NCBI GenBank assembly: GCA_022820025.1
Contig: JAJEGF010000025.1
Coordinates: 145,522 to 209,521 of the forward strand
Direction of reading: 5' to 3'
Source of the DNA: Chloroflexota bacterium
GTDB taxonomy: Bacteria > Chloroflexota > UBA11872
Length of the DNA: 64,000 nt
Made by a program: the position numbers and the translations under genes. Under the pieces are notes generated by a model. It had not been told where the DNA came from and did no database searches. It was given only the letters and a program-made list of their open reading frames with translations. Positions 4,588 through 51,424 of this stretch are shown here, piece after piece. Every line of letters begins with the position of its first letter. Position 1 is the stretch's first letter.

Positions 4588-5469
4588 TCAGGGCTGCGGA
4601 GATTCCTTGCGCGCTGCAAGCAGCGCGCGGGCGGCGCCTACCACGATGCCCGCCATGTCGGCGCAGTTTGCCCGGTACTCGTCGGTGCCGAAGATGTTGG
4701 GCCAGTCGCGGCGGTAGACCAGGTCGCTGACGGTGAGAATCAGGCCCAGGTCGGCGCCGCGGAACTCAGTGACGATCATCAGGGCCGAGGCTTCCATGTC
4801 GACGCTGAGGACGCCCTGTTCGCCGTAGTTCCGGACCTTGCCCGTGAACTCGCGGTAGGGGGCGTCGGTGCTCCAGACGCGGCCGGCGTGGGATGCGTGG
4901 TCGCTGTTCCTGGCGGCCTCAATCAGTGCCCGGGAAGCCGGGCCGTCGGCGCGGGCCGGGTGGTCCGGCGGCTGGTAGTGATAGGAGGCGCCTTCTTCGC
5001 GCAGGCCGCTGGTGGCGATGACGTAATCGCCAACGCCGATCCCCGGCTTCAGGGCGCCGGTGGCGCCGGCGATCAGAAACGTTCGGGCTCCGAGCGCCAT
5101 CAACTCTTCCAGGGTCATGACGGAACGCGCGCCGCCGACGGGGATGCGCGCCACGCCGATTGGATGGCCGTCCAGCTCGCCTATGCGCAAGCCGGGGCGC
5201 AGGGAATCGGCTTCTTCGGCGGCGCCTTTGGAGCGATCGATGGTCTTGGGGCCTTGCAGGCCAAGACGAACGTCGGACTCGGCGGCGCCAACGGCCTCGG
5301 CCAGGGGCTCCACCATGAGGTTGATGAACCCGCCGATGACGAGCGCCGGGCAGTTTTCGCTTGGGTCGTGGCCGCGGCGCTCGGCGTACTCGCGGACGTG
5401 CGACTCGGGGTCGATGACCGGCGTGGCGTTGCCGTGCGCGTTGAGCCAGTCGGGTGGTGACGAGGGCAT
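4588..5469 (-). CDS. Nucleoside phosphorylase (PNP/UDP-1 family)
   Basis: ELMALGARTFLIAGATGAL, VWSTDAPYRE, SVDMEASA. Confidence 0.88.
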   Translation of the reverse strand: MPSSPPDWLNAHGNATPVIDPESHVREYAERRGHDPSENCPALVIGGFINLMVEPLAEAVGAAESDVRLGLQGPKTIDRSKGAAEEADSLRPGLRIGELDGHPIGVARIPVGGARSVMTLEELMALGARTFLIAGATGALKPGIGVGDYVIATSGLREEGASYHYQPPDHPARADGPASRALIEAARNSDHASHAGRVWSTDAPYREFTGKVRNYGEQGVLSVDMEASALMIVTEFRGADLGLILTVSDLVYRRDWPNIFGTDEYRANCADMAGIVVGAARALLAARKESPQP

Positions 5470-8971: not shown

Positions 8972-9817
8972 ATGAGCGCCAAACCTCCAGCCGATCAGCC
9001 TGCCTGCCCCGATCTGAGCACCGGCCAGCGCATCCGCAGCCTCGAGGTCGAGGGTTTCGTCGTTCTGCCAGGTGTGCTGGATGCGGAGACGGTGGGGCGG
9101 CTGAAGGCGCAGGCGGCGGCCTGGGATCCGACGCCGGTGCATTACAGCCAGCATCAACGCACGCAGTCGGACGTGCAGTTTGCTGGCGGCGCGGTGACGG
9201 AGCTGATTGCACATCCGCCGGTGATTGGATTCCTGCGGGCGGCGCTGGGGCCTGACCTGGTGTTCATGCACGCGCACTACGCAATCTCGGCGCCGGGGCA
9301 TCCGGGTATGAACCTGCACACCGACTCGCATCCCTACGGGACCAGCGACTGGGGATACGCCTTCAGCGCGCCGCGGCAGGTGCGGGTGCTCTACTACCTG
9401 GACGACCTGACGACGGACGTTGCGCCGTTGCGGGTGATTCCACGGTCACACCTGTCCATGCATCCGGATGCCAACCCGTACAAGCGCTATCCCTCGCATC
9501 CCGACGAGGTCGTCATCACCGCGCCGGCCGGCACGGCCGTGGTCATCAACCTGGCGCTCTTCCACGCCAACGGCCCGAACACCGGCAACCGGGCGCGCGA
9601 AATGATCGCGCTGTCCTACCGCCCGGCCTGGTGCGGACCGACCGTGCAGGACTTGGAACCGTGGCCGGACGAAGTGCTGGCGAGCTTGCCGCCACAGGTA
9701 CGCGACCTCTGCGGCAACCGCAACCAGCGCGCCACCCACGACCAGCCCGGCATGCCCCCCATCGATCCCCGAACCAACGCCCCCGGCATCAGCCCCCGCC
9801 GCTGGGACAACCCCTAA
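8972..9817 (+). CDS. Phytanoyl-CoA dioxygenase (PhyH) family Fe(II)/2OG dioxygenase
   Basis: EVEGFVVLPGVL, LHTD (HxD), LRVIPRSH, distal FHANG. Confidence 0.85.
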   Translation: MSAKPPADQPACPDLSTGQRIRSLEVEGFVVLPGVLDAETVGRLKAQAAAWDPTPVHYSQHQRTQSDVQFAGGAVTELIAHPPVIGFLRAALGPDLVFMHAHYAISAPGHPGMNLHTDSHPYGTSDWGYAFSAPRQVRVLYYLDDLTTDVAPLRVIPRSHLSMHPDANPYKRYPSHPDEVVITAPAGTAVVINLALFHANGPNTGNRAREMIALSYRPAWCGPTVQDLEPWPDEVLASLPPQVRDLCGNRNQRATHDQPGMPPIDPRTNAPGISPRRWDNP

Positions 9818-10842
9818 AGCCGAACCGTCCGGCCGCTTTCGGCTGACTCGTAGGCGGCATGCACGACACGCAGCGCAGCCAGGGCTTCGGCACCGGTGAT
9901 TGGCGCGGGCTCACCCAGGCAGCCGCGCAGCGTGCGCTCGATCCACGGGGTGTAGTTGGCGAAGTCCGGGCCGCTGTAGGCGATGCGGCGGTCCGGCACG
10001 CCGCCGGGGTCCGGCGACGTGGAGTGCCACTCCAGCAGGTGCCGGTCGGACGCTCCGAAGCGCAGCCAGCCGTTGGAGCCCCAGAGACTCAGGTCCAGTT
10101 GGTAGGGCTTGTCCAGCAGGTAGCCGGACAGCAGCGTGCCGTAGGCGCCGTTCGCGAAACGCAGGTTGACCAGCGCCAGGTCCTCCACGTCAATGGGCGC
10201 GCCGCCCACGACGTCGGTCATGGCCTGGACTTCCACCACCGGCGATTCGGTGATAAAGGTCATCAGGTCGATCCAGTGAATGCCCAGCCAGACCAGGTGC
10301 CCGCCGCCGGCCAGCGAGCGCCTGAAGGTCCAGTCGCGCACCCCGTTCGCGGGCCAGATACGCGCCTGGTCCGCGATCACCGCGCCGCGCAGCGCATAGG
10401 CCCGGCCGAGCGCGCCGCTGGCGAAGATGCGGCGGGCGTCCTGGACCCAGGGACAGAGGCGCCGGGCCAGCGGAACTATCAGGTGCTGGTCGCGCTGCTC
10501 GGCCAATTCAACCAATTCAGCGAACTGATCGGGATGCGTGCAGGCCGGTTTCTCCACCATGACGTGGCAACCGGCTTCCAGGCACCGACGAACCGCCGGC
10601 GGCGCATTGGCGGCGATCAGCGAAACGATAGCCAGGTCCGGCGCGGCGCTCGCCAGCCCGTCCGCCAACTCGTGGTGCGTTCCGCGCAGCTTGGGTCCGA
10701 GCGTCTCTCGCGCCTCGGCGAAGGTGCCGCCGGACTCGTCAACCACCACCACCGAGTCCACCAGGTCCAGGTCGCGCAGCGCCTGCAGAAAGAAGGCCCT
10801 GTGGCCCTGTTCGTCGGCTTCCATCACCAGCGCGACGTGCAT
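9814..10842 (-). CDS. Gfo/Idh/MocA family oxidoreductase
   Basis: HVMVEKP, GGGHLVWLGIHWID, VEDLA. Confidence 0.88.
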   Translation of the reverse strand: MHVALVMEADEQGHRAFFLQALRDLDLVDSVVVVDESGGTFAEARETLGPKLRGTHHELADGLASAAPDLAIVSLIAANAPPAVRRCLEAGCHVMVEKPACTHPDQFAELVELAEQRDQHLIVPLARRLCPWVQDARRIFASGALGRAYALRGAVIADQARIWPANGVRDWTFRRSLAGGGHLVWLGIHWIDLMTFITESPVVEVQAMTDVVGGAPIDVEDLALVNLRFANGAYGTLLSGYLLDKPYQLDLSLWGSNGWLRFGASDRHLLEWHSTSPDPGGVPDRRIAYSGPDFANYTPWIERTLRGCLGEPAPITGAEALAALRVVHAAYESAESGRTVRL

Positions 10843-10910
10843 GCGTTTTCCCGGCTCGGTTCTAGGCGCGACGATCCAGTCTAGGCAGCCGTCGTCACAC
10901 TTACGTGAAT

Positions 10911-10929
10911 GGGCCCGTTGCTAGACTGA
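10911..10929 (+). repeat. 19-bp direct repeat copy 1, contains extended -10 (TGcTAGACT)
   Basis: GGGCCCGTTGCTAGACTGA identical to 12670-12688. Confidence 0.9.
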
Positions 10930-10953
10930 AATTCCAGCCCCCAGAGGTGCCGC

Positions 10954-11979
10954 ATGTCCGCGCGTCCCATCCTGTTGGTCACCGGCGGCGCCGGGTTTAT
11001 CGGCGCCAATTTCGTGCATCACGTGCGTGCCGTGCGTCCCGACTGGGACGTGCGGGTGCTGGACGCCCTGACCTACGCGGGAGATCGGCGCCGGCTCGAG
11101 GGCGCCGGCTGCGACCTGATCGTCGGCGACATTGCGGACACCGAGACCGTGCAGTCGGCGTTGGCCGGGGTGACCTGGCTGGTGAACTTTGCGGCCGAGA
11201 CTCACGTGGACCGCTCGCTGCTGGACGCCGAGCCGTTTCTGCGAACGAACGTCACCGGCACCTACCGGCTGTTCGAGGCGGCGCGGCAGGCCGGGGTGTC
11301 CAAGGCCGTACACGTGAGCACCGACGAGGTCTACGGCGAAACCCGCGGCGCGGCCTTCGTGGAGACCGACCCGCCGGCGCCCCGCAACCCCTACTCGGCC
11401 TCCAAGGCGGCCGGCGATCTGATGGTGCTGGCGGCATGGCAGACGCACCGGTTCCCGGTGTGCATCACCCGCGGCGTCAACACCATCGGTCCCTGGCAGC
11501 ACCCGGAGAAAGCCGTGCCGCTGTTCACCATCAACGCCATGCGCGGCCAACCGCTGCCCCTGTACGGGCGCGGCGAGCAGCAGCGGGACCGGCTGTACGT
11601 GGAGGACCACGCCAGCGCCATCCTGACGGTGCTGGAACGCGGCGAGCCTGGCGAGGTCTACAACGTCGCCGCCGACAACAACCGCGACAACCTGAGCGTG
11701 GCGCGGCGCATCTGCGAACACGTCGGGGCGCCGCCGGACCTGATCCACTTCGTGGAGGACCGGACCGGACACGACTGGAACTACGCGCTGGACAGCGCCA
11801 AGTTGCAGTCGCTGGGCTGGTCGCCTCGTTTCGACTTCGAGGCGGCCATGGACGCCACCGTGGACTGGTACCTGGAGATGCGGGACTGGTGGGGACCGAT
11901 CGTGGACGGCGACTTCCAGGACTACTACGAGCGCCAATACGGCGAACGGCTGGCCGGTGCGGAGGCCTTTCGCGGCTAG
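10954..11979 (+). CDS. rfbB: dTDP-glucose 4,6-dehydratase
   Basis: TGGAGFIG, DALTYAG, NFAAETHVDRS, VSTDEVYG, YSASK, DRLYVEDH. Confidence 0.93.
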   Translation: MSARPILLVTGGAGFIGANFVHHVRAVRPDWDVRVLDALTYAGDRRRLEGAGCDLIVGDIADTETVQSALAGVTWLVNFAAETHVDRSLLDAEPFLRTNVTGTYRLFEAARQAGVSKAVHVSTDEVYGETRGAAFVETDPPAPRNPYSASKAAGDLMVLAAWQTHRFPVCITRGVNTIGPWQHPEKAVPLFTINAMRGQPLPLYGRGEQQRDRLYVEDHASAILTVLERGEPGEVYNVAADNNRDNLSVARRICEHVGAPPDLIHFVEDRTGHDWNYALDSAKLQSLGWSPRFDFEAAMDATVDWYLEMRDWWGPIVDGDFQDYYERQYGERLAGAEAFRG

Positions 11980-12007
11980 CGGGGCCGAATCGGCCTCCCC
12001 CGGAAAG

Positions 12008-12658
12008 GTGCGGCTCCCGCGCTACACCTGGCGGGAGGCTTGGCGCTGGATGCGCTGGGACGTGCCGACCCGCGTCGCCTTCCTGATCGGCGCGCCGTTG
12101 ATCTGGATCGCGGTGGCGGGCATCGACCCGTCGGCCATTGGACTGCAACTGGGGCTGGGGCTGCTGGACTGGGTCCTGATCGGCTTGTGGTCGGTCGGCG
12201 TCATGCTGGTCACGCTCAGCTACCGCCGCTGGCTCTGGCCGGTGCGGGTCGCCGGGGACCGCTCGGCGCTGCTGCTGAACCTGCCGTTTTTCCTGGTGCT
12301 CAATCCGGTCGCCGAAGAACTGTTTTTCCGGGGCGCGGCCATGTTCGGCCTTGCCAACCTGATCGGGATGCCGTGGTCGATCGTCGTGACGTCGCTGGTG
12401 TTCGGCCTGCACCACGGGCTGGACCGGCAGTTCCCGCGCTCGTTCCTTGTGCTGGGCACGCTGGGCGGGCTGCTGTTCGGGATCGCGGCGGCGCACTTCG
12501 AGTCAGTCGCGCCGGCCATCGTGCTGCACATCGCGGCCGACGCCGTGATCTTCGTGGCCGCCGCGCCGATCCTGGAACGCCTGGGCGTGGGCCTGCGACT
12601 TCCGCAGCCGCCGTCGCCGACCCCTGCCGCGCCCGCGCCGGCCGATCAGGCGTCGTAG
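12008..12658 (+). CDS. CPBP/CAAX (Abi-family) intramembrane metalloprotease
   Basis: PVAEELFFRG, FGLHH, AIVLH motifs in multi-TM protein; start approximate. Confidence 0.88.
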   Translation: MRLPRYTWREAWRWMRWDVPTRVAFLIGAPLIWIAVAGIDPSAIGLQLGLGLLDWVLIGLWSVGVMLVTLSYRRWLWPVRVAGDRSALLLNLPFFLVLNPVAEELFFRGAAMFGLANLIGMPWSIVVTSLVFGLHHGLDRQFPRSFLVLGTLGGLLFGIAAAHFESVAPAIVLHIAADAVIFVAAAPILERLGVGLRLPQPPSPTPAAPAPADQAS

Positions 12659-12669
12659 TCCCGCCGCGC

Positions 12670-12688
12670 GGGCCCGTTGCTAGACTGA
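12670..12688 (+). promoter_or_regulatory. 19-bp direct repeat copy 2, likely extended -10 promoter of tRNA-Arg
   Basis: TG-c-TAGACT ends 10 nt before tRNA G1. Confidence 0.75.
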
Positions 12689-12696
12689 TTTTTCCT

Positions 12697-12770
12697 GACC
12701 CCGTAGCTCAGTTGGACAGAGCGTGTGGTTGCGGACCACAAGGCCGGAGGTTCGAGTCCTCTCGGGGTCG
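12697..12770 (+). tRNA. tRNA-Arg(GCG); CCA end not encoded (followed by CCCA)
   Basis: Acceptor GACCCCG/CGGGGTC, D-loop with A20, anticodon stem TGTGG/CCACA with loop TTGCGGA, T-loop TTCGAGT. Confidence 0.93.
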
Positions 12771-12808
12771 CCCAACAATCTTCAGCTTGAAGGCGTCGCC
12801 CGACCCGC

Positions 12809-13795
12809 ATGACTGACGACCGAATCCCGCGTCGTCGCATCGGCGCCTCCGAACTTGAAGCCGGCGCCGTCGGCGTCGGCACCTGGCAGTGGGGCGACCG
12901 GCGCTATTGGGACGACCACGACGGCCAGGAACCCACCGACATCGCCGCCACATACCACGCGACGATCGACCGCGGCGCCGATTTCCTTGATACCGCCGAA
13001 CTCTACGGCTTCGGCGAGTCGGAACGGGTGATCGGCAAACTGCGCGCGGGCGATTCGCGGTCGGCCGTGGTAGCCACCAAGTACATGCCGGCGCCCAACC
13101 GTTGGCGCCTGCGTTCGGTGGACGCGGCCATCGACGGTAGCCTCAGACGCTTGGGCGTGGACCGGCTCGACCACTACCAGGTGCACTGGCCGTACGGCGT
13201 CATCCCGCACCGGCGCCTGCTTGGGCGGCTGGCGCGGGCTGTTCACGACGGACGGATTGCCTATGTCGGCGTCAGCAATTTCACCGAACCGCAGATGCGT
13301 CGGGCGCACGCGGTACTGGCCGATGCCGGGGTGCCGCTAGTCTCGAACCAGGTGTCCTACAGCCTGCTGCGTCGCGCGCCCGAGGTGAACGGAGTGCTGG
13401 ACGCCTGCCACCAATTGGACGTGACCCTGATTGCCTACAGCCCGCTGGCCCAGGGTCTGCTCAGCGGCAAGTACGGACCCGGCGGCCGCCAGCCGCGCTC
13501 GCGGCCGTTGCGGCGCGTGCTCAGGGCCAAGACTCCGGAAACGGTGATGCCGCTGCTGGACACCCTGCGACGAATCGGTGAATCCGTGGGAGCCACGGCC
13601 GGTCAAGTCGCCGTGGCCTGGACGCTGCGAGATTCAGCCGTGCTGCCGATCGTCGGTGCGCGCACAGCCGGCCAGGCGCAGGCGAATGCCGACGCCGCGT
13701 TGATCGAACTCGACGACGAGGCCCTGCGCGAGTTGGACGCTGCATCCCGCGCATACCGCACGGCTAGCCCGTTGGCGCGCCGACTTCGAGGCTGA
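12809..13795 (+). CDS. Aldo/keto reductase
   Basis: GVGTWQWG, DTAELYG, VATK, YQVHWP, VGVSNF, IAYSPLAQGLL. Confidence 0.93.
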   Translation: MTDDRIPRRRIGASELEAGAVGVGTWQWGDRRYWDDHDGQEPTDIAATYHATIDRGADFLDTAELYGFGESERVIGKLRAGDSRSAVVATKYMPAPNRWRLRSVDAAIDGSLRRLGVDRLDHYQVHWPYGVIPHRRLLGRLARAVHDGRIAYVGVSNFTEPQMRRAHAVLADAGVPLVSNQVSYSLLRRAPEVNGVLDACHQLDVTLIAYSPLAQGLLSGKYGPGGRQPRSRPLRRVLRAKTPETVMPLLDTLRRIGESVGATAGQVAVAWTLRDSAVLPIVGARTAGQAQANADAALIELDDEALRELDAASRAYRTASPLARRLRG

Positions 13796-13880
13796 GAGCT
13801 TCCCAAAGCAGGAAAACCCACACACTCACCAGGCGCGGGGAGCGTATCCTGAGTGCGAGGGCTCAAGGGGGAGCGCAAGC

Positions 13881-15455
13881 ATGTACGACGCTCGTAAGGG
13901 TCTAGGCCCAGTGCTCAGGCGCGAGGCGCGACCGGCGCTGGCCGGCCTGATTGCCGCCGGCGTGTCGTTTGGAATCACCGAAATCTTCGCCGGACTCATT
14001 TCCGGCGGTCCGTCGCTCATCATCGCCGTGGGCTCCGGGGTCATCGACCTGTCGCCGAAGTTCGCCAAGGACTTCGCGATTGCCGTGTTCGGCACAAACG
14101 ACAAGCTGGCGCTGCTGATTTCCATCGTTGTGATCGGTCTGGGCGTTGGCGCGGTTGTCGGCGTGGCCGGCACGCGCAAGTTCTGGATCGCCCAGCTTGG
14201 CTTCGTGGCGTTCGGGATCCTGGCGGCCGTCGCCGGCATCGCCGAACCGCAACTGTCGCCGGTGCTGGCGCTGATCGGCGCCCTGCTGGCGGCCTCGGCC
14301 GGCATGTGGACGCTGGCGATGCTGCTGAAGCTCCTCGAAGCGCAAGCAATGCCCCAGCCCGTTCGCGACCCGCGGCTGATGGGACTCGGCCGTCGCTCAT
14401 TCATGCGGATGGCCGGTGCGTTTGCAGTTCTGGCAGTCGGCACCGCGGCCGGCGGGCGGGTGATGCTGGAGCGCGCGCGCACGATCGCCTCCAGCCGCCT
14501 GGACGTGATCTTGCCCAAGCCGCGCGACGCCGCGAGGCCGGTGCCGGAGGGCGCCATGGTCGACGCCGCGGGCATCGAGCCGATCGTCACCCCCAATGAG
14601 GACTTCTACCGCATTGACACGGCCCTCAGCATTCCCCAGGTCGACCTGTCAACCTGGACGCTCAAGATCGAGGGCCTGGTGGACCGGCCCTACCAGCTGA
14701 CCTATGACGAATTGCTGGACCTTTCGCGGGTCGAGCGCCACGTCACGCTCTGCTGCGTCTCGAACGAAGTCGGCGGCGACCTGGTGGATAACGCCAAGTG
14801 GCTGGGCGTGCCGCTGACCGAGTTGCTGGACCGAGCCGGCCTGCAAGCGGAGGCCAGCCAGATCGTCGGCATGTCGGTGGACGGCTTTACCGCCGGGTTC
14901 CCGGTGGACACCGTCTACGACGGGCGCCAGGCCCTGGTGGCCGTGGGCATGAACGACGAGCCGCTGCCGCCGAAGCACGGTTTCCCGGCCCGGCTGGTCG
15001 TGGCGGGTCTCTACGGCTACGTCTCGGCCACGAAATGGCTGGACGCGATCGTGGTGAACCGGTGGGAGGAATTCGACGGCTACTGGATACCACGCGGCTG
15101 GTCCAAGGAAGGACCGATCAAGACGCAATCACGGATTGACGTCCCGCGTCGCGGTCAGACCCTGAACCCAGGCCTGCAGCCCATCGCCGGCGTGGCCTGG
15201 GCGCAGGACCGCGGCATTACCAAGGTCGAAGTCAAGGTAGGCGAGACCGACTGGCAGGAAGCCCAACTGGGCGAGGCGATCTCCAAGGACACCTGGCGCC
15301 AGTGGGTCTTGCCCTGGGACGCCACCCCGGGCAGCCACGTCATCTCAGTGCGCGCGACCGACACCACCGGAGAGCCGCAAACCGCGGTCGTCCAGCGCTC
15401 CGACCCCGACGGCGCGACCGGTCACCACACCATCGTGGTGGACGTCAGCGGGTAA
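13881..15455 (+). CDS. Membrane-anchored molybdopterin oxidoreductase (sulfite oxidase family)
   Basis: N-terminal TM helices; TPNEDFYRIDT, TLCCVSNEVGG, HGFPARLVVAGLYG, KTQSRID. Confidence 0.9.
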   Translation: MYDARKGLGPVLRREARPALAGLIAAGVSFGITEIFAGLISGGPSLIIAVGSGVIDLSPKFAKDFAIAVFGTNDKLALLISIVVIGLGVGAVVGVAGTRKFWIAQLGFVAFGILAAVAGIAEPQLSPVLALIGALLAASAGMWTLAMLLKLLEAQAMPQPVRDPRLMGLGRRSFMRMAGAFAVLAVGTAAGGRVMLERARTIASSRLDVILPKPRDAARPVPEGAMVDAAGIEPIVTPNEDFYRIDTALSIPQVDLSTWTLKIEGLVDRPYQLTYDELLDLSRVERHVTLCCVSNEVGGDLVDNAKWLGVPLTELLDRAGLQAEASQIVGMSVDGFTAGFPVDTVYDGRQALVAVGMNDEPLPPKHGFPARLVVAGLYGYVSATKWLDAIVVNRWEEFDGYWIPRGWSKEGPIKTQSRIDVPRRGQTLNPGLQPIAGVAWAQDRGITKVEVKVGETDWQEAQLGEAISKDTWRQWVLPWDATPGSHVISVRATDTTGEPQTAVVQRSDPDGATGHHTIVVDVSG

Positions 15456-15467
15456 CGGGATCCGCCT

Positions 15468-16337
15468 CTAGGCGTAGTCCCCGTGCGCCCCGGTCCCACT
15501 CGGGTCCGCGAGTTCGTCCGCGCCGCAGAGGTAGCGCCACCAGTCGGCGCGTTCCTGGGCGACGGCCGAGGATTCGCCGGTGAGGTTGTGGGCGTTCTTG
15601 TTCATGCGGAAGTAGCGCCGGATCTCCTCGCTGTCCCAGCCGTCGGTGTTGAAGATGCCGCGCTGCGGGACCCGCGGGTTGTAGCGAATCTTGAACATGA
15701 AGCGCCACTGGTCGATCTCGTTGGTCTGGGCGCAGTGCCACAGCGCCTCGTGCATGAAGACGATGCGTCCGGCCTTGCCGGACAGGCGCTTCTGGCCGGT
15801 GATGTTCTTGTAGCGGGCCACGTCGGGACCGAGCACCGAGCGCATGTGCGAGCCGGGCAGCACCAGCGTGGGACCCATCTCGTGCGGGGTGTCGTGCGCG
15901 AAGTAGGCCGTGAGGATGTCGAACGACCAGGGGTGCACGCCCGGCAGGCGTACCTGGCGCCGACCGCCGGCGTCCACGTGCCACTGCTGCGCCGTCTCCT
16001 GGCGAGGCCCGGTGCAGTGCAGGGCCGAATGGCTGGCCACGTGCCCGGGGCCCAGCAGGCTCTGCAGCACGGCCTTCACGCGCGGCAGGTTGTGCACGGC
16101 CCGCACGGCGGCGGATCGTTCGTAGAACCCGTGCGGGTTATCCGTGATGTGCCAGCGCACCTCGGGAATGGGGCCGTCGGCGTTGACCGATGCCAGTTCG
16201 TCGGCGTTGACCGCTTCGCTCAGTTCGTCGGGAATCAGGTCGTCGAACTCGATGAAGCCATCGATGACGAACCGCGCCATCTGGTGCACGTCCAGGAGTT
16301 CGCTCTGCGCCACGACCTCGGTTTCTGCGATCGCCAT
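15468..16337 (-). CDS. PhyH family dioxygenase
   Basis: FVIDGFI, QWHVD (HxD), GPTLVLPGSH, LWHCA. Confidence 0.85.
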   Translation of the reverse strand: MAIAETEVVAQSELLDVHQMARFVIDGFIEFDDLIPDELSEAVNADELASVNADGPIPEVRWHITDNPHGFYERSAAVRAVHNLPRVKAVLQSLLGPGHVASHSALHCTGPRQETAQQWHVDAGGRRQVRLPGVHPWSFDILTAYFAHDTPHEMGPTLVLPGSHMRSVLGPDVARYKNITGQKRLSGKAGRIVFMHEALWHCAQTNEIDQWRFMFKIRYNPRVPQRGIFNTDGWDSEEIRRYFRMNKNAHNLTGESSAVAQERADWWRYLCGADELADPSGTGAHGDYA

Positions 16338-21264: not shown

Positions 21265-23064
21265 TCAGCCGGCGCTGGCCGCCTGACGCACACGCCGCCA
21301 CACGCGGTCCACGAATGCGCGCGACAGGTCGGGATCCCACGCAATCGCGTCCGGATCATCGGCATGCGTATGCAGCCAGGCGGTCACGATGTGCCGTTCG
21401 TGGTCGCTCGTGTCGGCGCCCGGCGCCTCCGCACGATCAAGGCGTTGCAGAGCGGCGCGCAGCGCAGGCCGGCGCGGGCGGGCGACTGACTCGATCGCGG
21501 CAATAGCGCCGTTCTCTATCCGAACGAGTTCTGCATCTCCCGGCGTGGCGCCCGGTGAAATCGCCAGCACGGGTGCGGCGCCGAGACCACCGCGCAGCGG
21601 GTGCCGTAAGACGCGCGCGCGCCGAATGCGGCGGGCAAACGCTTCGCCCTCAGCGGCCTCGGCGGCATCCACGATTCGCAAAGCCGCCTCGCGGCCCACA
21701 CCCAGGAAGGCAACCGCCGCGTCGCGCCGCCACGCGGGAACTTGCTTGTCGACGCTGCGTCGCGAGGGCAGTTCAAAGATTCGCCGGGCCGCGTCGCTTG
21801 CCAGCCTCGCGTCCCTCGAAGTCGGGAACGGCCCCAGGTAGTCGGCTCCATCGTCCCGTGGAACCGCGGCCGCATGCGTCACCGCGGACTCGGCGGGCCC
21901 GACTCGAACGAACCGCCGACCGATTCGCCAGCGCCGATTCCGGTTATATGTCGGGGATAGCGTGGTGATCAGCTCGGCTTCACGCACCAGGGCGCGCAGT
22001 TCCGAGCCGGTGGGCTCCCACTCGATGGCGTCGATCTGCGCCAGCATCCCGTCACGACGCCGAACGAATCCAGCCGAGTCGGTGAAGTGGCTGCGAACGC
22101 GCCGTTGCAGGGACGTGGATTTGCCGATATACAGCGGCCGGTTTGCCGAGTCGCGAAAGATGTAGACCCCGGGCGATGGCGGCAGATTGCGCGAGGCCCA
22201 GCGAGCCAGTTGCCGAGCCCGTCGCGGGTGGCGGCCTTCGGGCCCGGCTCTCGCCGCGAGTTGTCGCAGGTCGCCGAGGGTTCGGACGTCCCGTTGGGCT
22301 GCGCGGTCCAGCAAATACTCGAGCAACTTCGCGGTGACCCCAGCGTCGTCAAGCGCGCGGTGCGTAGGCGAGTCGGATATCTCGGCCGACTCCAGCACCG
22401 TGGCCAGCCCTGTGCCCGGCAGATCGGTCATCAACGCCGCGCTCAGCTCCATGGTGTCCAGGCCGTCGCCGGGGAATAGCGCGCGTCGCGACCACACGGC
22501 CTCCCGGTTCAGGTAGCCGAGGTCCGTGGGCAGATTGTGTGCCACCAGCACTCCGCCGGTCTGGAACTCACGGAACTCATCCAGCACCGTCTCGATGGGC
22601 GGCGCGCCGACCAGCATCTCGTCTGTGATGCCCGTATAACGCGTCACGAACTTGGAGACCCGTCCGGGCACATGCACCAGCGAGGCATAGCGTGAAATCT
22701 CCTGGCCCGCCCGCAGACGCAACGCCCCGACTTCAAGGATCCGGTGCCGACCGCCGCGCCCGCCGTTGGTTTCGATGTCGAACACGACGAACTCGGTGTC
22801 ATCGATGGCATCGGAGCGCTGCGACCAGGCCGCCAGTCCCCAGTGCCCCGCGGCGACCGTTGCCAGACGATCGTCGGCTTCCAGCAGCGGCGACAGGATG
22901 CGCGAACCAATGTGGGCGCCGCCGGCCTGCACGTGCAGGACCGCACGCACCAGCTGCTGCAAGGACATGGGTCGCCCTGCATCTTCCAGCGTCGATACCG
23001 CCGCCTCAACCAGGACGCTGCGCCGGCCCGGCGCGGCCTCGTCGGCAGCCGTGTCCTCGCTCAC
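21265..23064 (-). CDS. HARE-HTH + DnaQ-like DEDDh exonuclease + UvrC-like GIY-YIG nuclease
   Basis: GHWGLAAW, VFDIET, HNLPTD, HRALDDA, GVYIFRD...LYIGKS...RVRSHF; GTG start overlaps upstream TGA. Confidence 0.85.
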   Translation of the reverse strand: MSEDTAADEAAPGRRSVLVEAAVSTLEDAGRPMSLQQLVRAVLHVQAGGAHIGSRILSPLLEADDRLATVAAGHWGLAAWSQRSDAIDDTEFVVFDIETNGGRGGRHRILEVGALRLRAGQEISRYASLVHVPGRVSKFVTRYTGITDEMLVGAPPIETVLDEFREFQTGGVLVAHNLPTDLGYLNREAVWSRRALFPGDGLDTMELSAALMTDLPGTGLATVLESAEISDSPTHRALDDAGVTAKLLEYLLDRAAQRDVRTLGDLRQLAARAGPEGRHPRRARQLARWASRNLPPSPGVYIFRDSANRPLYIGKSTSLQRRVRSHFTDSAGFVRRRDGMLAQIDAIEWEPTGSELRALVREAELITTLSPTYNRNRRWRIGRRFVRVGPAESAVTHAAAVPRDDGADYLGPFPTSRDARLASDAARRIFELPSRRSVDKQVPAWRRDAAVAFLGVGREAALRIVDAAEAAEGEAFARRIRRARVLRHPLRGGLGAAPVLAISPGATPGDAELVRIENGAIAAIESVARPRRPALRAALQRLDRAEAPGADTSDHERHIVTAWLHTHADDPDAIAWDPDLSRAFVDRVWRRVRQAASAG

Positions 23065-31641: not shown

Positions 31642-32522
31642 AAAGGCCGGTACCAGCGACGCGGTTTGTTGGACTGTCGGCGGACGGGTTTGGGGCCGAG
31701 GCGCCGGCGGACGAGGCAGAGGTCATCGCGCAGCAGTTCGTGTGGGGCGGGCGACGCGTCGGGGTCGTGACGCCAGACGTCGCCGACGTGGTAGGGGCTT
31801 TCGAGGATTGCGAAAACGTCGAGTTGGCGTTTGGTTATTTCGTCGAGCAGGTTGGGCCAGTCGGCTACGCCGTCGGTGAGGGCGGCGGGTGTGCACGACC
31901 AGCCGTCGGGCCCGGGTAGGACGGCGGTGTTGGAGATGCCGAGGGCCTGGACGTGGTCGTCGAGCGCGTCGAGGTCCAGGCGCCAGGATTCGGGATCGAT
32001 GGGGCCAAGCCAGCCGGGGGCGAGGCAGATGCCAACGTAGCCGGGGAGGCGGCCGTGCAGCAGGGCGGCGGCGTGGCCGGATTGTTCCTGGAGGGTGCCC
32101 GGAATCTGACGCACGAGGGCGCGCAGGTCGTGGCGCCGGCATAGGGTTTCCAGCCCGCGCAGGCCGGCGCGGGCGGCCTGGAGGGAGTCGAGGTAGGCCG
32201 CGCCGTCGAGCCGGGCCCAGGCACCGTATCGAATGTAGGGGACGCGGGCTTCCTGGCAGCCGCGATGGATGTCTTCGGCGTGGTCGTCGAAGGGCGAGGT
32301 CAGGTCCGTGGTGACCATAACGACCTTCGCGCCGGCGTCGGCGCAGTCGACGGTGACTTCGATGAGGTCGATGGCCTGGGACGGGTCGACCTGCCCGTCG
32401 GGAGCGATGACGAGGTCGATGGCGTCCAGACCCAGGGCGCACGCCTGGGCGACGAGATCGGCGGGTGAGTGCCCCGGAAAGGCGGTGCCGGAGAGTACGT
32501 AGCGGGGGAACTTAAGGGCCAC
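31638..32522 (-). CDS. Divergent xylose-isomerase-like TIM-barrel protein
   Basis: LDAIDLVI, VPYIRYG, GVADWP, ILESPY; some metal ligands appear missing. Confidence 0.65.
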   Translation of the reverse strand: MALKFPRYVLSGTAFPGHSPADLVAQACALGLDAIDLVIAPDGQVDPSQAIDLIEVTVDCADAGAKVVMVTTDLTSPFDDHAEDIHRGCQEARVPYIRYGAWARLDGAAYLDSLQAARAGLRGLETLCRRHDLRALVRQIPGTLQEQSGHAAALLHGRLPGYVGICLAPGWLGPIDPESWRLDLDALDDHVQALGISNTAVLPGPDGWSCTPAALTDGVADWPNLLDEITKRQLDVFAILESPYHVGDVWRHDPDASPAPHELLRDDLCLVRRRLGPKPVRRQSNKPRRWYRPF

Positions 32523-39146: not shown

Positions 39147-39905
39147 GTGAGCAGTTGGTATCCGGCGGCCGTGTTTTTCGATGCGTACGGCACGCTGATT
39201 CACTTTCCAGCCGACCCCTCGCCGTTCGACTACATGGCTGACGCGGTGCGGCGGGCGGGGGTTGATCTGCCGCGCAAGCGGCTGGATGCGGCGCTGCACG
39301 CCGAGATGCGGTATTTCAAGGCTCACTTCTCGGCGGTTCGGACGGCGGAGGACTTCCAGCGGCTGAAGTTCGACGACGCGCGGGTCTACGTGGAGGAGCT
39401 TGGAGATACGGGGCCGGTGCGCCTGGACGTTGCCGACATGGCCGCCGAACTGCACGAGGCGTTTGCGACGCGGGTACTCCCGGATGCGTGGCCGGCGATT
39501 GACGTGGTCAAGGCGGCGGGCGTGCGGGTTGGTGTGCTCAGCAACTACAGCTACCTGCTGCCGCTGGTGCTGGACGGGTTGGGACTGGCCGAGCGGCTGG
39601 ACCCGATCGTGTTCTCGGCGGCGGTGGGCGCGGAGAAACCGGATCGGCGGATTTTCGAAACCGCGGCCGATTCGGTGGGCGCGGAGCCGGCGGACTGCGT
39701 GCTGATCGGCGACGACCTGGAGAACGACGTGGCCGGCGGGCGCAATTGCGGGATGCCGGTGGTGTGGATCGCCCGTGACGGTGCGACGGCTCCTCCGGGA
39801 GTGGCCGCGGCTCGCGACCTGGCGGAGGCGGCGCGGATGGCGCTGGCGCCCGGCTGGCGGACGCTCTCGCTGACCGAGCCACACGGCGCCGGGGCGCACG
39901 CCTGA
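39147..39905 (+). CDS. HAD-superfamily hydrolase
   Basis: FDAYGTL, LSN, EKPD, IGDDLENDVAG. Confidence 0.9.
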   Translation: MSSWYPAAVFFDAYGTLIHFPADPSPFDYMADAVRRAGVDLPRKRLDAALHAEMRYFKAHFSAVRTAEDFQRLKFDDARVYVEELGDTGPVRLDVADMAAELHEAFATRVLPDAWPAIDVVKAAGVRVGVLSNYSYLLPLVLDGLGLAERLDPIVFSAAVGAEKPDRRIFETAADSVGAEPADCVLIGDDLENDVAGGRNCGMPVVWIARDGATAPPGVAAARDLAEAARMALAPGWRTLSLTEPHGAGAHA

Positions 39906-44160: not shown

Positions 44161-45860
44161 GCGCCGGCACGGCACCGATCCAGAGCTGGCTGGCGCGTCC
44201 GGCATGGTTTGGCTGGACGCGCGGCGAGTGGCTGCTCTACGCCGTCATCCTGGCGCTGGCCGCGAGCCTGCGTTTTTTTGACCTTGGCGAGCGGGTCTAT
44301 CACCACGACGAAGCAATTCACGCCAAAGAGTCCAACGACATGATCAATGGCAAACAGTTCCGCTATGACCCCGCGTATCACGGTCCCCTGCTCTATTTCG
44401 GCAATGTGCTCGTGTTCCTGGCGGCCGGGGTCACCGATGCCATGGGGCGGGTGATCCCGGCGCTGTTCGGTGTAGCTTCGGTGGGTGCGCTGCTGATCTT
44501 CCGCCCGGACCTTGGGCGCACCGGCACGCCGCTGGCCATGGCGGCCATGACCCTCTCCACGTCGTTTCTTTACTACTCCCGATTCCTGCGCATGGACATT
44601 TACGTGGCGCTCTTCACCCTTCTGCTTGTCGGCTCGGTCATGCGCTATCTGGAGGCACCGCGGCGGCGCTGGATTTACCTGGCCTGGGCGGCGCTGGGAC
44701 TCTCGCTGGCGACGAAGGAGAACACCTTCATCCACGGCTTTGCGCTGCTGGTGGTTCTGATTGCCGTGGGTGGGCTGGCCGACCGCGCCAGACGCCGCGG
44801 CGCCAGCGCGTCTCCCTTGGGCGAACAGGCGCTCAACGCCTTTCGGTCGTTGGGCTACGACGTGGAGCACGTGGTCTACGGCGCCTTGACGTTCGTGCTG
44901 ATCGTCTTCGCGTTCTATACGTCGTTCCTCACGCACCTACCGGGCTTTCGCGCCGCGTTTACCAGTTCCATCGAGTACTGGACCAGCGTTCATGAGTCCG
45001 AACGGGTCAATCAGCCGTGGTTCTACTACGCGATGTTCCTGGGTCTGTATGAGCCCTTTGCGGTGGTCTTTGGCGTGGTCGCGTTGATCCGCGCGCGCCA
45101 AGCTCGTCACCTGCTGCCGCTGGTGCTGGGCGTGTGGATCGTGGTGACCTGGATCGTTTACTCCGGCGCTGGCGAAAAGGCGCCGTGGCTGGTTCTGCAC
45201 CTGCTATGGCCGCCGCTGCTGCTGGCGTGTTGGTGGGTGGGCCGCTGGTTTGACGAACCCCGGCCTCGTGTTCCTCGACTCATGGTGGGGCTGCTGAGCG
45301 CAGGGCTCCTGTGCTGGACGGTGTGGTACGCGATTCCGATCACGTACGAGCGCGGCAGCGTCCCCAACGATCTGGTCGTGTATGTGCAGACCACGGACGA
45401 CGTAAAGGAGGTTGCCGCAATCGTTGATGAGGCCGCGAGGCGGACCGGATTGGGCGACAAGCTGCCGCTGCTGATCGACAACAACTATGCGTGGCCGACC
45501 GTCTGGTACCTGCGCGACTACGCGGACGCGCTCTATACCAAGGACATGAACCTCGAAGACGCCCAACAAGCGCAGATAGTGCTGATGTCCCCTTCGAGCG
45601 CCAACATCCTCGGCATTCAGCTTCCCGAGTACGTGGGCCGCGAAATGAAGCTGCGCTGGTGGTTCCCGGAACACACCTATAAGAGTTGGGGCCTGGGATT
45701 CCTGGGCGAGTTCCTGGCGGATCCGGAGGCGCGGCGTACGTTCCTACACTGGTTGGTGACGCGCGAAGAGCCGCCAGTACCCAAGGGCTCGTATGACTTC
45801 ATGCTGTATGTGCGGACGGACTTGCTGAAGGACGGGCCGCTGGGACCGTTCCGGCTGTGA
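44157..45860 (+). CDS. TIGR03663/Agl23-like PMT-family (GT-C) membrane protein
   Basis: YHHDEAIHA, YDPAYHGP, SRFLRMD, ATKEN, EKAPWL; GTGA overlap with upstream gene. Confidence 0.85.
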   Translation: MSAGTAPIQSWLARPAWFGWTRGEWLLYAVILALAASLRFFDLGERVYHHDEAIHAKESNDMINGKQFRYDPAYHGPLLYFGNVLVFLAAGVTDAMGRVIPALFGVASVGALLIFRPDLGRTGTPLAMAAMTLSTSFLYYSRFLRMDIYVALFTLLLVGSVMRYLEAPRRRWIYLAWAALGLSLATKENTFIHGFALLVVLIAVGGLADRARRRGASASPLGEQALNAFRSLGYDVEHVVYGALTFVLIVFAFYTSFLTHLPGFRAAFTSSIEYWTSVHESERVNQPWFYYAMFLGLYEPFAVVFGVVALIRARQARHLLPLVLGVWIVVTWIVYSGAGEKAPWLVLHLLWPPLLLACWWVGRWFDEPRPRVPRLMVGLLSAGLLCWTVWYAIPITYERGSVPNDLVVYVQTTDDVKEVAAIVDEAARRTGLGDKLPLLIDNNYAWPTVWYLRDYADALYTKDMNLEDAQQAQIVLMSPSSANILGIQLPEYVGREMKLRWWFPEHTYKSWGLGFLGEFLADPEARRTFLHWLVTREEPPVPKGSYDFMLYVRTDLLKDGPLGPFRL

Positions 45861-49444: not shown

Positions 49445-49570
49445 GGTTGGGAGCATTTGGTCTGGCTGGGTAGCCAGGGGTGGCCTGGGTGAGGTCTGGT
49501 GGGTGGTTGCTGGTGGGTCCCCGCCCCGGATCGCGTCCGGGGCAGGCTCTCCGCGGCGATGACGGGGTGG
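49445..49570. repeat. Repeat unit A, copy 1 (carries nested CCCCGGATCGCGTCCGGGGCAGGCTCT)
   Basis: Exact blocks GGTTGGGAGCATTTGGT, AGCCAGGGGTGGCCTGGGTG, GATGACGGGGTGG shared with 50061-50213. Confidence 0.8.
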
Positions 49571-50010
49571 TTGCTGCTGCTTTGGCGAGGGAAAGCGCGG
49601 CGGGCAGGGGGAGCGGATGGGGCTGCGGGCGGGCGCCTGGCGGCGGACTTTGGTCTGGGGGTGAAGGGGGGAACTGTCTCCGGCTGGCCGGAGACAGTTT
49701 GGGCGGATTTTTTTGGCGGGTGGGAGGGCGGAAGGGGGAGGCGAGGAGTGCGCGTAGCGAAGTGAGAAGCGAGAAGCGGAGGGGACGGGAAAGCGAGAGC
49801 TGCGAACCGTGAGACGGGCAGGAAGGGGCGAGGGCAGGGACGTGGGATCGGAAGGGGACGGGCAGCGATGGGGAAAGGTTCAGGAGGAAGGCGAGCAGGG
49901 TGGCGAGGCGTGGGGGGAGCGGGAACGCGGCGGAGGCGAGGGGCATTCGGGGTGGGGCGGTATGTCTTACTCAGATAGAGTACGGCGTGGTACCGTGGAA
50001 GTCAAGGGGA

Positions 50011-50045
50011 AGAAGGGGAGAGGGTAGAGGGCAGAGGAGTGAGAC
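50011..50045 (+). repeat. Purine heptamer array ending AGAGGAGTGAGA (solo copy)
   Basis: agaaggg gagaggg tagaggg cagagga gtgagac. Confidence 0.75.
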
Positions 50046-50060
50046 GGAGGGGGAGTAGGT

Positions 50061-50213
50061 GGTTGGGAGCATTTGGTTGAGGCGGGTTGCCAGGGATGCG
50101 GGGATTCGGATGCATCAAGGGCTTGCGGTGATGGGAGCCAGGGGTGGCCTGGGTGCGCTGGGGTAGCGGGTTGCTGCTGGGTCCCGGCCGGGGACGCCGG
50201 GATGACGGGGTGG
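50061..50213. repeat. Repeat unit A, copy 2
   Basis: Same three exact blocks as copy 1. Confidence 0.8.
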
Positions 50214-50281
50214 GGGCCTAGGGAAGGAGTGAGCTGAGAGAAGTGAGCGTTGAGCGAAGAGCGGGAAGAGCTGGATGGCGC

Positions 50282-50377
50282 GGGAGGATTGGGCGGGTTC
50301 GGAACGGGCGATGGACGCGGACGGTCAGGCGATCAAGGGGTTGGGGTGCTGGGTGTGGGAGCGGTTTTGGGGGCGGT
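50282..50377 (+). repeat. Repeat unit B, copy 1 (about 95 bp)
   Basis: 35-bp core CGATGGACGCGGACGGTCAGGCGATCAAGGGGTTG identical at 51016-51050. Confidence 0.85.
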
Positions 50378-50497
50378 TAGGGCGCCGGAGACGGAGTCGC
50401 AGCGGGGTGGGCTGGGTATGATCGTTGACAGGATTCTTTGGGCGGCACTGGGATCCTTCAACGGGCGCGATGGGAGCGTCGCGAGAGGGGACATGGG

Positions 50498-50695
50498 ATG
50501 ACGACCGTACCGGTCCAAGAGCCGCCGTTGACCAGATCGGACCTCCGGGACGAACTGGATCGGACACTGAAGCACTACGCCACGAAGGCTGACGTCGCCA
50601 ACCTCAAGGTCTGGATCGTCGGTCTGTTGCTGGTCGTGGTGCTGAATGTGGTTGGTACCGCCGGGGCCATTGTGGCGGCTTTTCTCGCAGGCTAG
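50498..50695 (+). CDS. Small coiled-coil + C-terminal TM protein (DUF1640/CCDC90-like)
   Basis: GAGGGG RBS; YATKADVANLKVWIVG followed by a hydrophobic tail. Confidence 0.7.
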   Translation: MTTVPVQEPPLTRSDLRDELDRTLKHYATKADVANLKVWIVGLLLVVVLNVVGTAGAIVAAFLAG

Positions 50696-50707
50696 GTCGC
50701 GGGGGCA

Positions 50708-50920
50708 CCCTCGGGAGAGGGTGAAGAGGGGGCTGGCGGAGGGGAGAAGACCCCTCACCGAATGCCGCAGACGGCTTCTGCCTCTCCCCCAGGAGAGGGT
50801 GAAGAGCGGGCGGCACTCCCGGGGATTCTGGTGCCTCTGGAGTTGGGTGCCCGGGGGACCCCTCACCGAATTCGGCGGGTACGCCGAGTCTGCCTCTCCC
50901 CTCGGAGAGGGTGAAGAGCG
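50708..50920 (+). repeat. Three palindromic units CCCCTCACCGAAT-hairpin-CCTCTCCCC-GGAGAGGGTGAAGAG (first is partial)
   Basis: GGAGAGGGTGAAGAG occurs three times; CCCCTCACCGAAT twice. Confidence 0.8.
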
Positions 50921-50988
50921 ACCTGCTGCTGTGACTTTGGTGGCCGCGGTTGCTGCGGGGCTTCGCGGGTGGCGGTGGCGGGGGCCGC

Positions 50989-51082
50989 GGGAGGATTGGG
51001 CGGGTTCGGAAGAGCCGATGGACGCGGACGGTCAGGCGATCAAGGGGTTGTGGTGCTGGCTGTATGAGCGGTTTGGGGCGGT
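50989..51082 (+). repeat. Repeat unit B, copy 2
   Basis: Direct repeat of 50282-50377. Confidence 0.85.
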
Positions 51083-51424
51083 GCGGGCGATAGATCAGTT
51101 GGAGGAGCGCCACATTCGCGCTGCGCAGCTCGTGGGTTAGAATTCCACTCGGTCGACCGGGCTTCGGCCGTGTGTGCCGTTGATCACGGCTTCACACAGC
51201 GTCCACCGAAACTGACATCCTTAATAGGGCGGGTTGTCGATGCCACAGTCGATCAACTTAATATCTATCTACATTTTTTTATCTAGATTTGCCGAATCAA
51301 GCACACGCCGAACCTCGTCTAATCCCTGGTCCGACTTCTCCGGGTCTGCTTTCCACCGCGTTTCTTGGCGTTTGCAGGACTTAGAGCTAGGCGACGGTAA
51401 GTTCCGGTCGGCCTGGAGCGCTCG

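Follow-up and report, generated by a model that had tools for sequence, protein, structure and literature searches.

The 64-kilobase (kb) stretch of DNA analyzed here (the window) belongs to an uncultured, sponge-associated member of the Chloroflexota and carries two exact copies of a 19-mer, GGGCCCGTTGCTAGACTGA, which bound a putative operon of two genes, one for a protein resembling dTDP-glucose 4,6-dehydratase ('rfbB') and one for a CPBP/CAAX-type intramembrane protease. The second copy stands directly before a gene for tRNA-Arg(GCG). We conclude, at a probability of about 85%, that the 19-mers are two separate and vertically inherited promoters of the extended -10, sigma-70 type, one of the operon and the other of the tRNA. 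In this arrangement the first promoter would drive the dehydratase-CPBP operon, with read-through into the tRNA gene being probable, and the second, internal promoter would secure expression of the tRNA from within the 37-nucleotide (nt) gap that precedes it. The internal promoter probably also serves an aldo-keto reductase (AKR) gene that begins 34 nt past the tRNA, since the sequence upstream of the AKR gene is poorly conserved and no conserved promoter lies between it and the tRNA. Selection would hold the 12 nt of TTGCTAGACTGA (positions -16 to -5) at both sites. The locus is ordinary, with two extended -10 promoters in a string of genes that mixes tRNA and mRNA, and its kind is already known.

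Position and rarity of the repeat pair

An exact-match search of the window placed the two copies of GGGCCCGTTGCTAGACTGA on the forward strand in intergenic DNA, where they bound the two genes as an earlier, sequence-only reading of this DNA had described (coordinates in Table 1). The first copy lies within the 111-nt gap between the divergently oriented Gfo/Idh/MocA gene (reverse strand) and the dehydratase-like gene (forward strand), and the second lies within the gap between the CPBP stop (12658) and the start of the tRNA-Arg(GCG) gene (12697). No third match occurs in the 64-kb window, even when three mismatches are allowed. Two matches were obtained in 0 of 100 shuffles, and the naive expectation for the repeat is 0.007. 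This value overstates the rarity of a 19-nt repeat, because two unrelated, isolated exact repeats of 20-21 nt are also present in GC-rich DNA of the window (21462/32157 and 39553/45109). The weight of the repeat pair comes from its conservation in relatives and less from its exactness.

Each copy contains the extended -10 motif TGcTAGACT (10919-10927 and 12678-12686). The hexamer TAGACT occurs four times in the 64 kb, and three of the four occurrences are at promoter positions inside one 1.8-kb stretch. The distribution of the motif was judged from the window together with about 40 related loci.

A conserved core between drifting flanks

The 12-nt core TTGCTAGACTGA is found exactly twice per locus, at the same two sites, in 23 of 23 distinct close genomes. 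The core is laid out with TG at -15/-14, TAGACT as the -10 hexamer, and then GA. Outside the core, the promoter regions of these genomes comprise 23 distinct sequences at one site and 22 at the other. The extended -10 that had been seen in each copy is borne out by this fixed position and by the invariance of the core while its flanks drift. In E. coli promoter biochemistry, sigma regions 3.0, 2.4/2.3 and 1.2 contact about -16 to -5, and by analogy the conserved block would fit the footprint of the housekeeping sigma factor on an extended -10 promoter.

The exact run shared by the two sites is 12 nt long in 8 genomes and 15-16 nt long in another 14; only in the window does it reach 19 nt. The additional 7 nt of the match, outside the core, are rich in G and C, and their drift at one site is independent of that at the other. 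The GGGCCCG at the tRNA site of the window is common to the separate clade of locus L012, and the GGGCCCG at the dehydratase site is common to L027, L028 and L029; the window is basal in its own subclade of the dehydratase-gene tree. The same 7-nt extension is also seen in 27 cross-genome pairings. The length of 19 nt is best understood, from these comparisons, as a chance coincidence of two flank states that happen to coincide in the window genome.

The flanks of the core were further compared by permutation test. Upstream flank identity was 5.61 of 12 positions within genomes and 5.37 of 12 between genomes (p=0.10), and downstream flank identity was 4.17 of 10 within and 4.29 of 10 between (p=0.85). 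Gene conversion between the copies was rejected on this basis, the flanks being no more alike within genomes than between them. With no excess of flank likeness within genomes, there is therefore no sign of recent shared origin or of gene conversion, and the two sites show no concerted evolution.

Promoter form in deeper relatives

The tRNA promoter retains the form GTTG[C/A]TA[G/C]ACT in all distant relatives (variants TTGATAGACT, TTGCTACACT and CTGATAGACT). In 36 loci, 8-10 nt separate the end of the -10 hexamer from the start of the tRNA acceptor stem, a spacing that would therefore leave the tRNA with a very short 5' leader.

The dehydratase site has followed a course of its own. Its -10 hexamer is TAGGAT or TAGAAT in distant relatives: L047 and L004 have TAGAAT with a leader, and in the most distant group the sequence is CGCCG[C/T]TAGAAT, which precedes the ATG by only 5 nt. 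The site reads TTGCTAGGAT in L003 and TTGCTAGACT in the close clade, and a stepwise series can be laid out from CGCCGTTAGAAT to CTGATAGAAT, to TTGCTAGGAT and to TTGCTAGACT, in which the end gccgcATG is unchanged. Substitutions spare T-12, A-11 and T-7, plus the TG wherever the extension is present. As TA...T is always spared, this pattern points to a promoter that evolved in place, unlike the decay of a target-site duplication. A consensus scan found no -35 element, and GTCACA (10894-10899), considered for this role, was rejected because its distance of 22 nt from the -10 is too great.

The leader of the dehydratase gene also differs across its lineage, with a switch from a leaderless to a leadered form. 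In the window, transcription from copy 1 is predicted to start near 10934-10936, which would give a leader of about 20 nt with a Shine-Dalgarno sequence, GAGG, at 10945-10948; the distance from the -10 to the dehydratase ATG is 26 nt, with the GAGG between them. In the leaderless orthologues, by contrast, the -10 hexamer is only 5 nt away from the ATG (Table 1). A TANNNT signal has been described for high-GC bacteria and leaderless genes (PMC3160421), and the distant relatives' TAGAAT resembles the leaderless geometry reported there.

Alternative accounts of the likeness between the two sites

Part of the likeness between the two sites appears to be a local promoter consensus. Other promoter-like sites of the window share TGCTAG..TGA, for example TGCTAGGATGA (31418), which immediately precedes a leaderless ATG, and TGCTAAGCT. 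Elsewhere the promoters read differently: that of the molybdopterin oxidoreductase (Mo-oxidoreductase) gene is GCGTATCCTGAG, the tRNA-Cys gene is preceded by TATCCT, and the Gfo promoter is without the TG. A scan of metagenomes with CCGTTGCTAGACTGAWWTY returned 12 matches, all from unrelated organisms (GC content 0.33-0.64) and none from the clade. Sponge symbionts of this kind are evidently missing from the JGI collection, and the scan is therefore uninformative on how far the motif has spread within the clade. In the unrelated high-GC contigs L039, L040, L042 and L046, the 15-mer CCGTTGCTAGACTGA follows a TTGCAC hexamer that resembles a -35 at the standard distance of 17 nt, and CCGTTGCTAGACTGA is thus a good generic sigma-70 promoter element beyond the clade too.

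Two observations weigh against two promoters that answer only to a common consensus. The identity of 12-15 nt is above that of the other conserved promoters here, and generic convergence alone may be insufficient to explain it. Locus L004 reads CCGCTGATAGA at both of its promoters, which makes two parallel differences from the other genomes.

Both observations would favor a non-mobile copying of the promoter, in which the dehydratase promoter was rebuilt after the tRNA promoter in the ancestor of the close clade, possibly an ancestor of L003 and L004 as well, and both were kept since. The route could have been a local duplication or a short conversion tract during upstream rearrangement, and it agrees with this account that the resemblance is found only in lineages whose upstream neighbor changed from PNP_UDP_1. 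We nevertheless consider such copying improbable. The 23 genomes show no excess of flank similarity within genomes, the stepwise series at the dehydratase site is what point changes and small indels within a single orthologous promoter would produce, and the shared tracts fall short of the length that ordinary homologous conversion requires. That the promoter of an operon for an envelope-sugar dehydratase and a CPBP protease was remodelled, in one lineage, into a copy of the adjacent tRNA-Arg promoter, identical at every base from -19 to -5, and has stayed invariant over at least 23 species is likewise a claim to which we assign a low probability. If it were true, a protein operon would be tied to growth-rate-linked promoter control of the stable-RNA type, and CCGCTGATAGA at both L004 sites would show the same coupling a second time.

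It is very unlikely that the 12-19 nt form an operator shared by the two sites, at which one regulator would co-control the operon and the tRNA beyond the contacts of sigma. Conservation does reach a few bases to either side of TGnTAnnnT, and CAGTCTAG has an inverted counterpart, CTAGACTG, across the divergent spacer. However, the limits of the conserved block (-16 to -5) are those of the sigma footprint, no linked regulator gene is present in the window or the related loci, and the inverted partner (10877-10884) varies as a -10 element would. The consensus of this Gfo -10 region across 21 genomes is GCcTAgACTGga, with TAAACT variants present.

The enclosed genes as residents of the locus

The sequence-only reading had taken the gene pair for a cassette that integrated into the tRNA promoter, duplicated it, and could be excised by recombination between the repeats. 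Two sets of relatives bear on this proposal. The first comprised the gene neighborhoods around CPBP homologues whose identity ranged from 95% to about 63%, and the second comprised every species-representative genome with a close AKR orthologue. The AKR-based search is independent, in that the presence of the dehydratase and CPBP genes was not presupposed.

In 19 of 19 Chloroflexota species that have an orthologue of the AKR, at 86-94% identity, the dehydratase, CPBP, tRNA-Arg(GCG) and AKR genes occur in the same order. Of the related loci, 37 extend to the tRNA side (about 30 distinct genomes, these 19 species included), and all of them keep the order of dehydratase, CPBP and tRNA-Arg(GCG), down to about 64% CPBP identity. 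An empty site was found in 0 of these 37 loci.

The left flank is variable, with Gfo and PhyH genes in the close clade and a GH172, FliD or NDH-2-type gene in others. In the most distant group, whose loci lack Gfo, a PNP_UDP_1 gene directly adjoins the dehydratase gene. Its orthologue in the window is located 5.5 kb further left (4639-5469), and the PhyH/Gfo block was therefore inserted later. By this comparison the dehydratase-CPBP pair appears to be older at the locus than its Gfo neighbor, which reverses the proposed history; an allele with Gfo next to the tRNA gene, which that history had led one to seek, was found in none of the relatives.

Other marks of mobility were looked for in the same region. 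GC content is flat, at 0.665-0.707, over positions 9000 to 16000, a range that covers the gene pair and its surroundings. The repeats enclose or adjoin genes for the SDR dehydratase, CPBP, Gfo, PhyH, AKR and Mo-oxidoreductase proteins, and no recombinase was found within or beside the repeats, in the window and in the relatives' loci alike. The deletion junction 10930/12689 that excision would create was absent from Logan contigs of 4 runs, including the source sample, although rare variants can escape contigs and the contig joints listed have short sides of 23-38 nt. As had been noticed before, the dehydratase gene is without rfbA, rfbC and rfbD partners: no gene of such a type lies within about 5 kb, and neither the window locus nor any related locus has these rhamnose-pathway neighbors. 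A mobile cassette, for which this isolation and the precise flanking of both genes by an exact direct repeat might speak, is already contradicted by the occupied loci, the age of the pair and the lack of an integrase, transposase or excision junction, as it is by the repeat itself, since relatives keep both genes but share a core of only 12-16 nt, never the 19-mer at both sites, inherit the outer heptamer of each copy at its own site, and in the distant group have a dehydratase promoter of different sequence (TAGAAT without TG), and we give it almost no credence.

Insertions do occur in the vicinity. The spacer between the Gfo and dehydratase genes is 110-111 nt long in 15 genomes and 703-2754 nt in 6. 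The insert is a small gene of about 150 amino acids with the motifs YGSYHWVPCS...GDDKYFFGIPYRM in L024, L026 and L009, and repetitive non-coding DNA in L017, L020 and L023, and the inserts are always upstream of a conserved promoter segment of 60-70 nt. Past the 3' end of the tRNA, two loci carry an inserted gene of the glyoxalase family (L005:5802-6984 and L006:5802-6984), and an inserted open reading frame resembling a PhdYeFM antitoxin is present in L048 and L049 (L048:4225-4596). A DDE transposase gene lies upstream of the dehydratase gene in L006 (L006:2422-3399). Plasticity exists around the tRNA, yet not at the two repeats.

Comparison with known promoters and gene arrangements

Extended -10 (TGn) promoters of the sigma-70 type are known from E. 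coli galP1 and from many Gram-positive and high-GC bacteria. The two sites resemble them in the TG at -15/-14, the single base that follows, the TAnnnT hexamer and the lack of a usable -35, as well as in a workable distance from the start of the gene or the 5' end of the tRNA and in the invariance of T-12, A-11 and T-7 in relatives. There is no difference in kind; what sets the pair apart is that two neighboring promoters share 12 invariant bases (19 here), which is beyond the generic need. We infer promoter activity, the transcription starts and the co-transcription of the tRNA with its neighboring genes from the sequence. In X21, the only metatranscriptome with related fragments, relatives are represented by four assembled contigs, all short and at 85-93% likeness, and the promoters lie outside every one of them.

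A direct repeat that flanks a small gene set beside a tRNA gene also recalls tRNA-associated islands with attL/attR repeats. Unlike in those islands, the repeat here stands wholly outside the tRNA gene, on its upstream side, the locus lacks an integrase, the gene set does not vary in presence among the relatives or depart from its surroundings in composition, and its outer neighbor arrived after it. None of the tested features that define an island, whether recombinase, variable presence, target-derived repeats or deviant composition, was found.

Mixed tRNA-mRNA operons with internal promoters provide a closer parallel, as in E. coli tyrU-tufB and the tRNA genes inside rRNA operons. The tRNA-Arg gene is similarly co-directional with the protein genes on its two sides, with gaps of 34-37 nt, no terminator and a promoter of its own upstream; no terminator was found either between CPBP and the tRNA or between the tRNA and AKR. 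Unlike in the tyrU-tufB type, the partners here (dehydratase, CPBP protease and AKR) are not translation genes, and co-transcription is a prediction.

The importance of the locus is small beyond correct annotation, and a false lead, that of a new mode of integration into tRNA promoters, is removed. The locus does offer a well-supported example of promoter architecture in uncultured, sponge-associated Chloroflexota, with an extended -10, no -35, and TAGACT or TAGAAT hexamers, and the leaderless-to-leadered change in one orthologous gene is part of this example. Promoter prediction in these genomes could be seeded with the invariant 12-mer.

Genes and other features of the locus

Table 1. Coordinates of the repeat copies, neighboring genes and related features. 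Positions are those of the window unless a locus label (L) is given.
Feature	Position	Strand	Remarks
Gfo/Idh/MocA oxidoreductase, left neighbor	9814..10842	-	
Third TAGACT, putative -10 of the divergent Gfo/Idh/MocA promoter	10878..10883	-	GCCTAGACTGG, without TG extension
GTCGTCAC box	10891..10898	+	about 23 nt upstream of the dehydratase -10
Repeat copy 1, putative promoter of the dehydratase-CPBP operon	10911..10929	+	core invariant in 23 genomes; TG 10919-10920; -10 TAGACT 10922-10927; GA 10928-10929
SDR dehydratase, dTDP-glucose 4,6-dehydratase-like ('rfbB')	10954..11979	+	341 amino acids; Pfam Epimerase 6e-57
CPBP/CAAX-type intramembrane protease	12008..12658	+	Pfam Rce1-like 1.5e-15
Repeat copy 2, putative promoter of tRNA-Arg(GCG)	12670..12688	+	core invariant in 23 genomes; TG 12678-12679; TAGACT 12681-12686
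tRNA-Arg, anticodon GCG	12697..12770	+	ARAGORN; Rfam tRNA 67.3 bits
Aldo-keto reductase (AKR)	12809..13795	+	Pfam 1.4e-58; 34 nt past the tRNA
Molybdopterin oxidoreductase	13881-15455	+	
Exact direct repeat	21462-21481 / 32157-32176		GC-rich sequence
Exact direct repeat	39553-39573 / 45109-45129		GC-rich sequence
Enlarged Gfo-dehydratase spacers	L017:1244-3997, L020:2868-4158, L023:2989-4160, L024:3461-4163, L026:3425-4163, L009:3208-3928		window counterpart 10843-10953
Leaderless dehydratase orthologues	L007:3860-3882, L048:2364-2386, L050:2348-2370		compare window 10911-10956

The dehydratase passes NCBIfam model TIGR01181 marginally, with 370 bits at an equivalog cut-off of 365.1, and scores far below the cut-offs of the enterobacterial RfbB models NF007582 and NF007490. 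For the CPBP gene, an alternative GTG start at 11957 would overlap the dehydratase stop. Its homologues number 52, and the named ones are all of Chloroflexota type. Together with sequencing runs and genome records, these homologues assign the window to the sponge-associated lineage.

The tRNA was the sole match in the Rfam search. Its anticodon loop is UUGCGGA, and the GCG anticodon is conserved in every related locus. In bacteria, CGU and CGC are usually decoded by a tRNA-Arg(ACG) that is edited to ICG.

Upstream of the dehydratase promoter, the GTCGTCAC box is conserved at 90% or above in the 23 genomes and remains on the dehydratase side wherever the spacer takes up DNA. The box is possibly a regulator site, for which its conservation makes it a candidate.

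A cluster of longer repeats, of 101 nt and 86% identity, is located at 49445-51090 (49.4-51.1 kb). The 85 nt upstream of the Mo-oxidoreductase gene (13796-13880) are nearly invariant across the 23 genomes, reading GGGCGCGTATCCTGAG...GCTCAAGGGGGAGCGCAAGCATG. This region is conserved beyond the needs of a promoter and ribosome-binding site and may be a regulatory leader.

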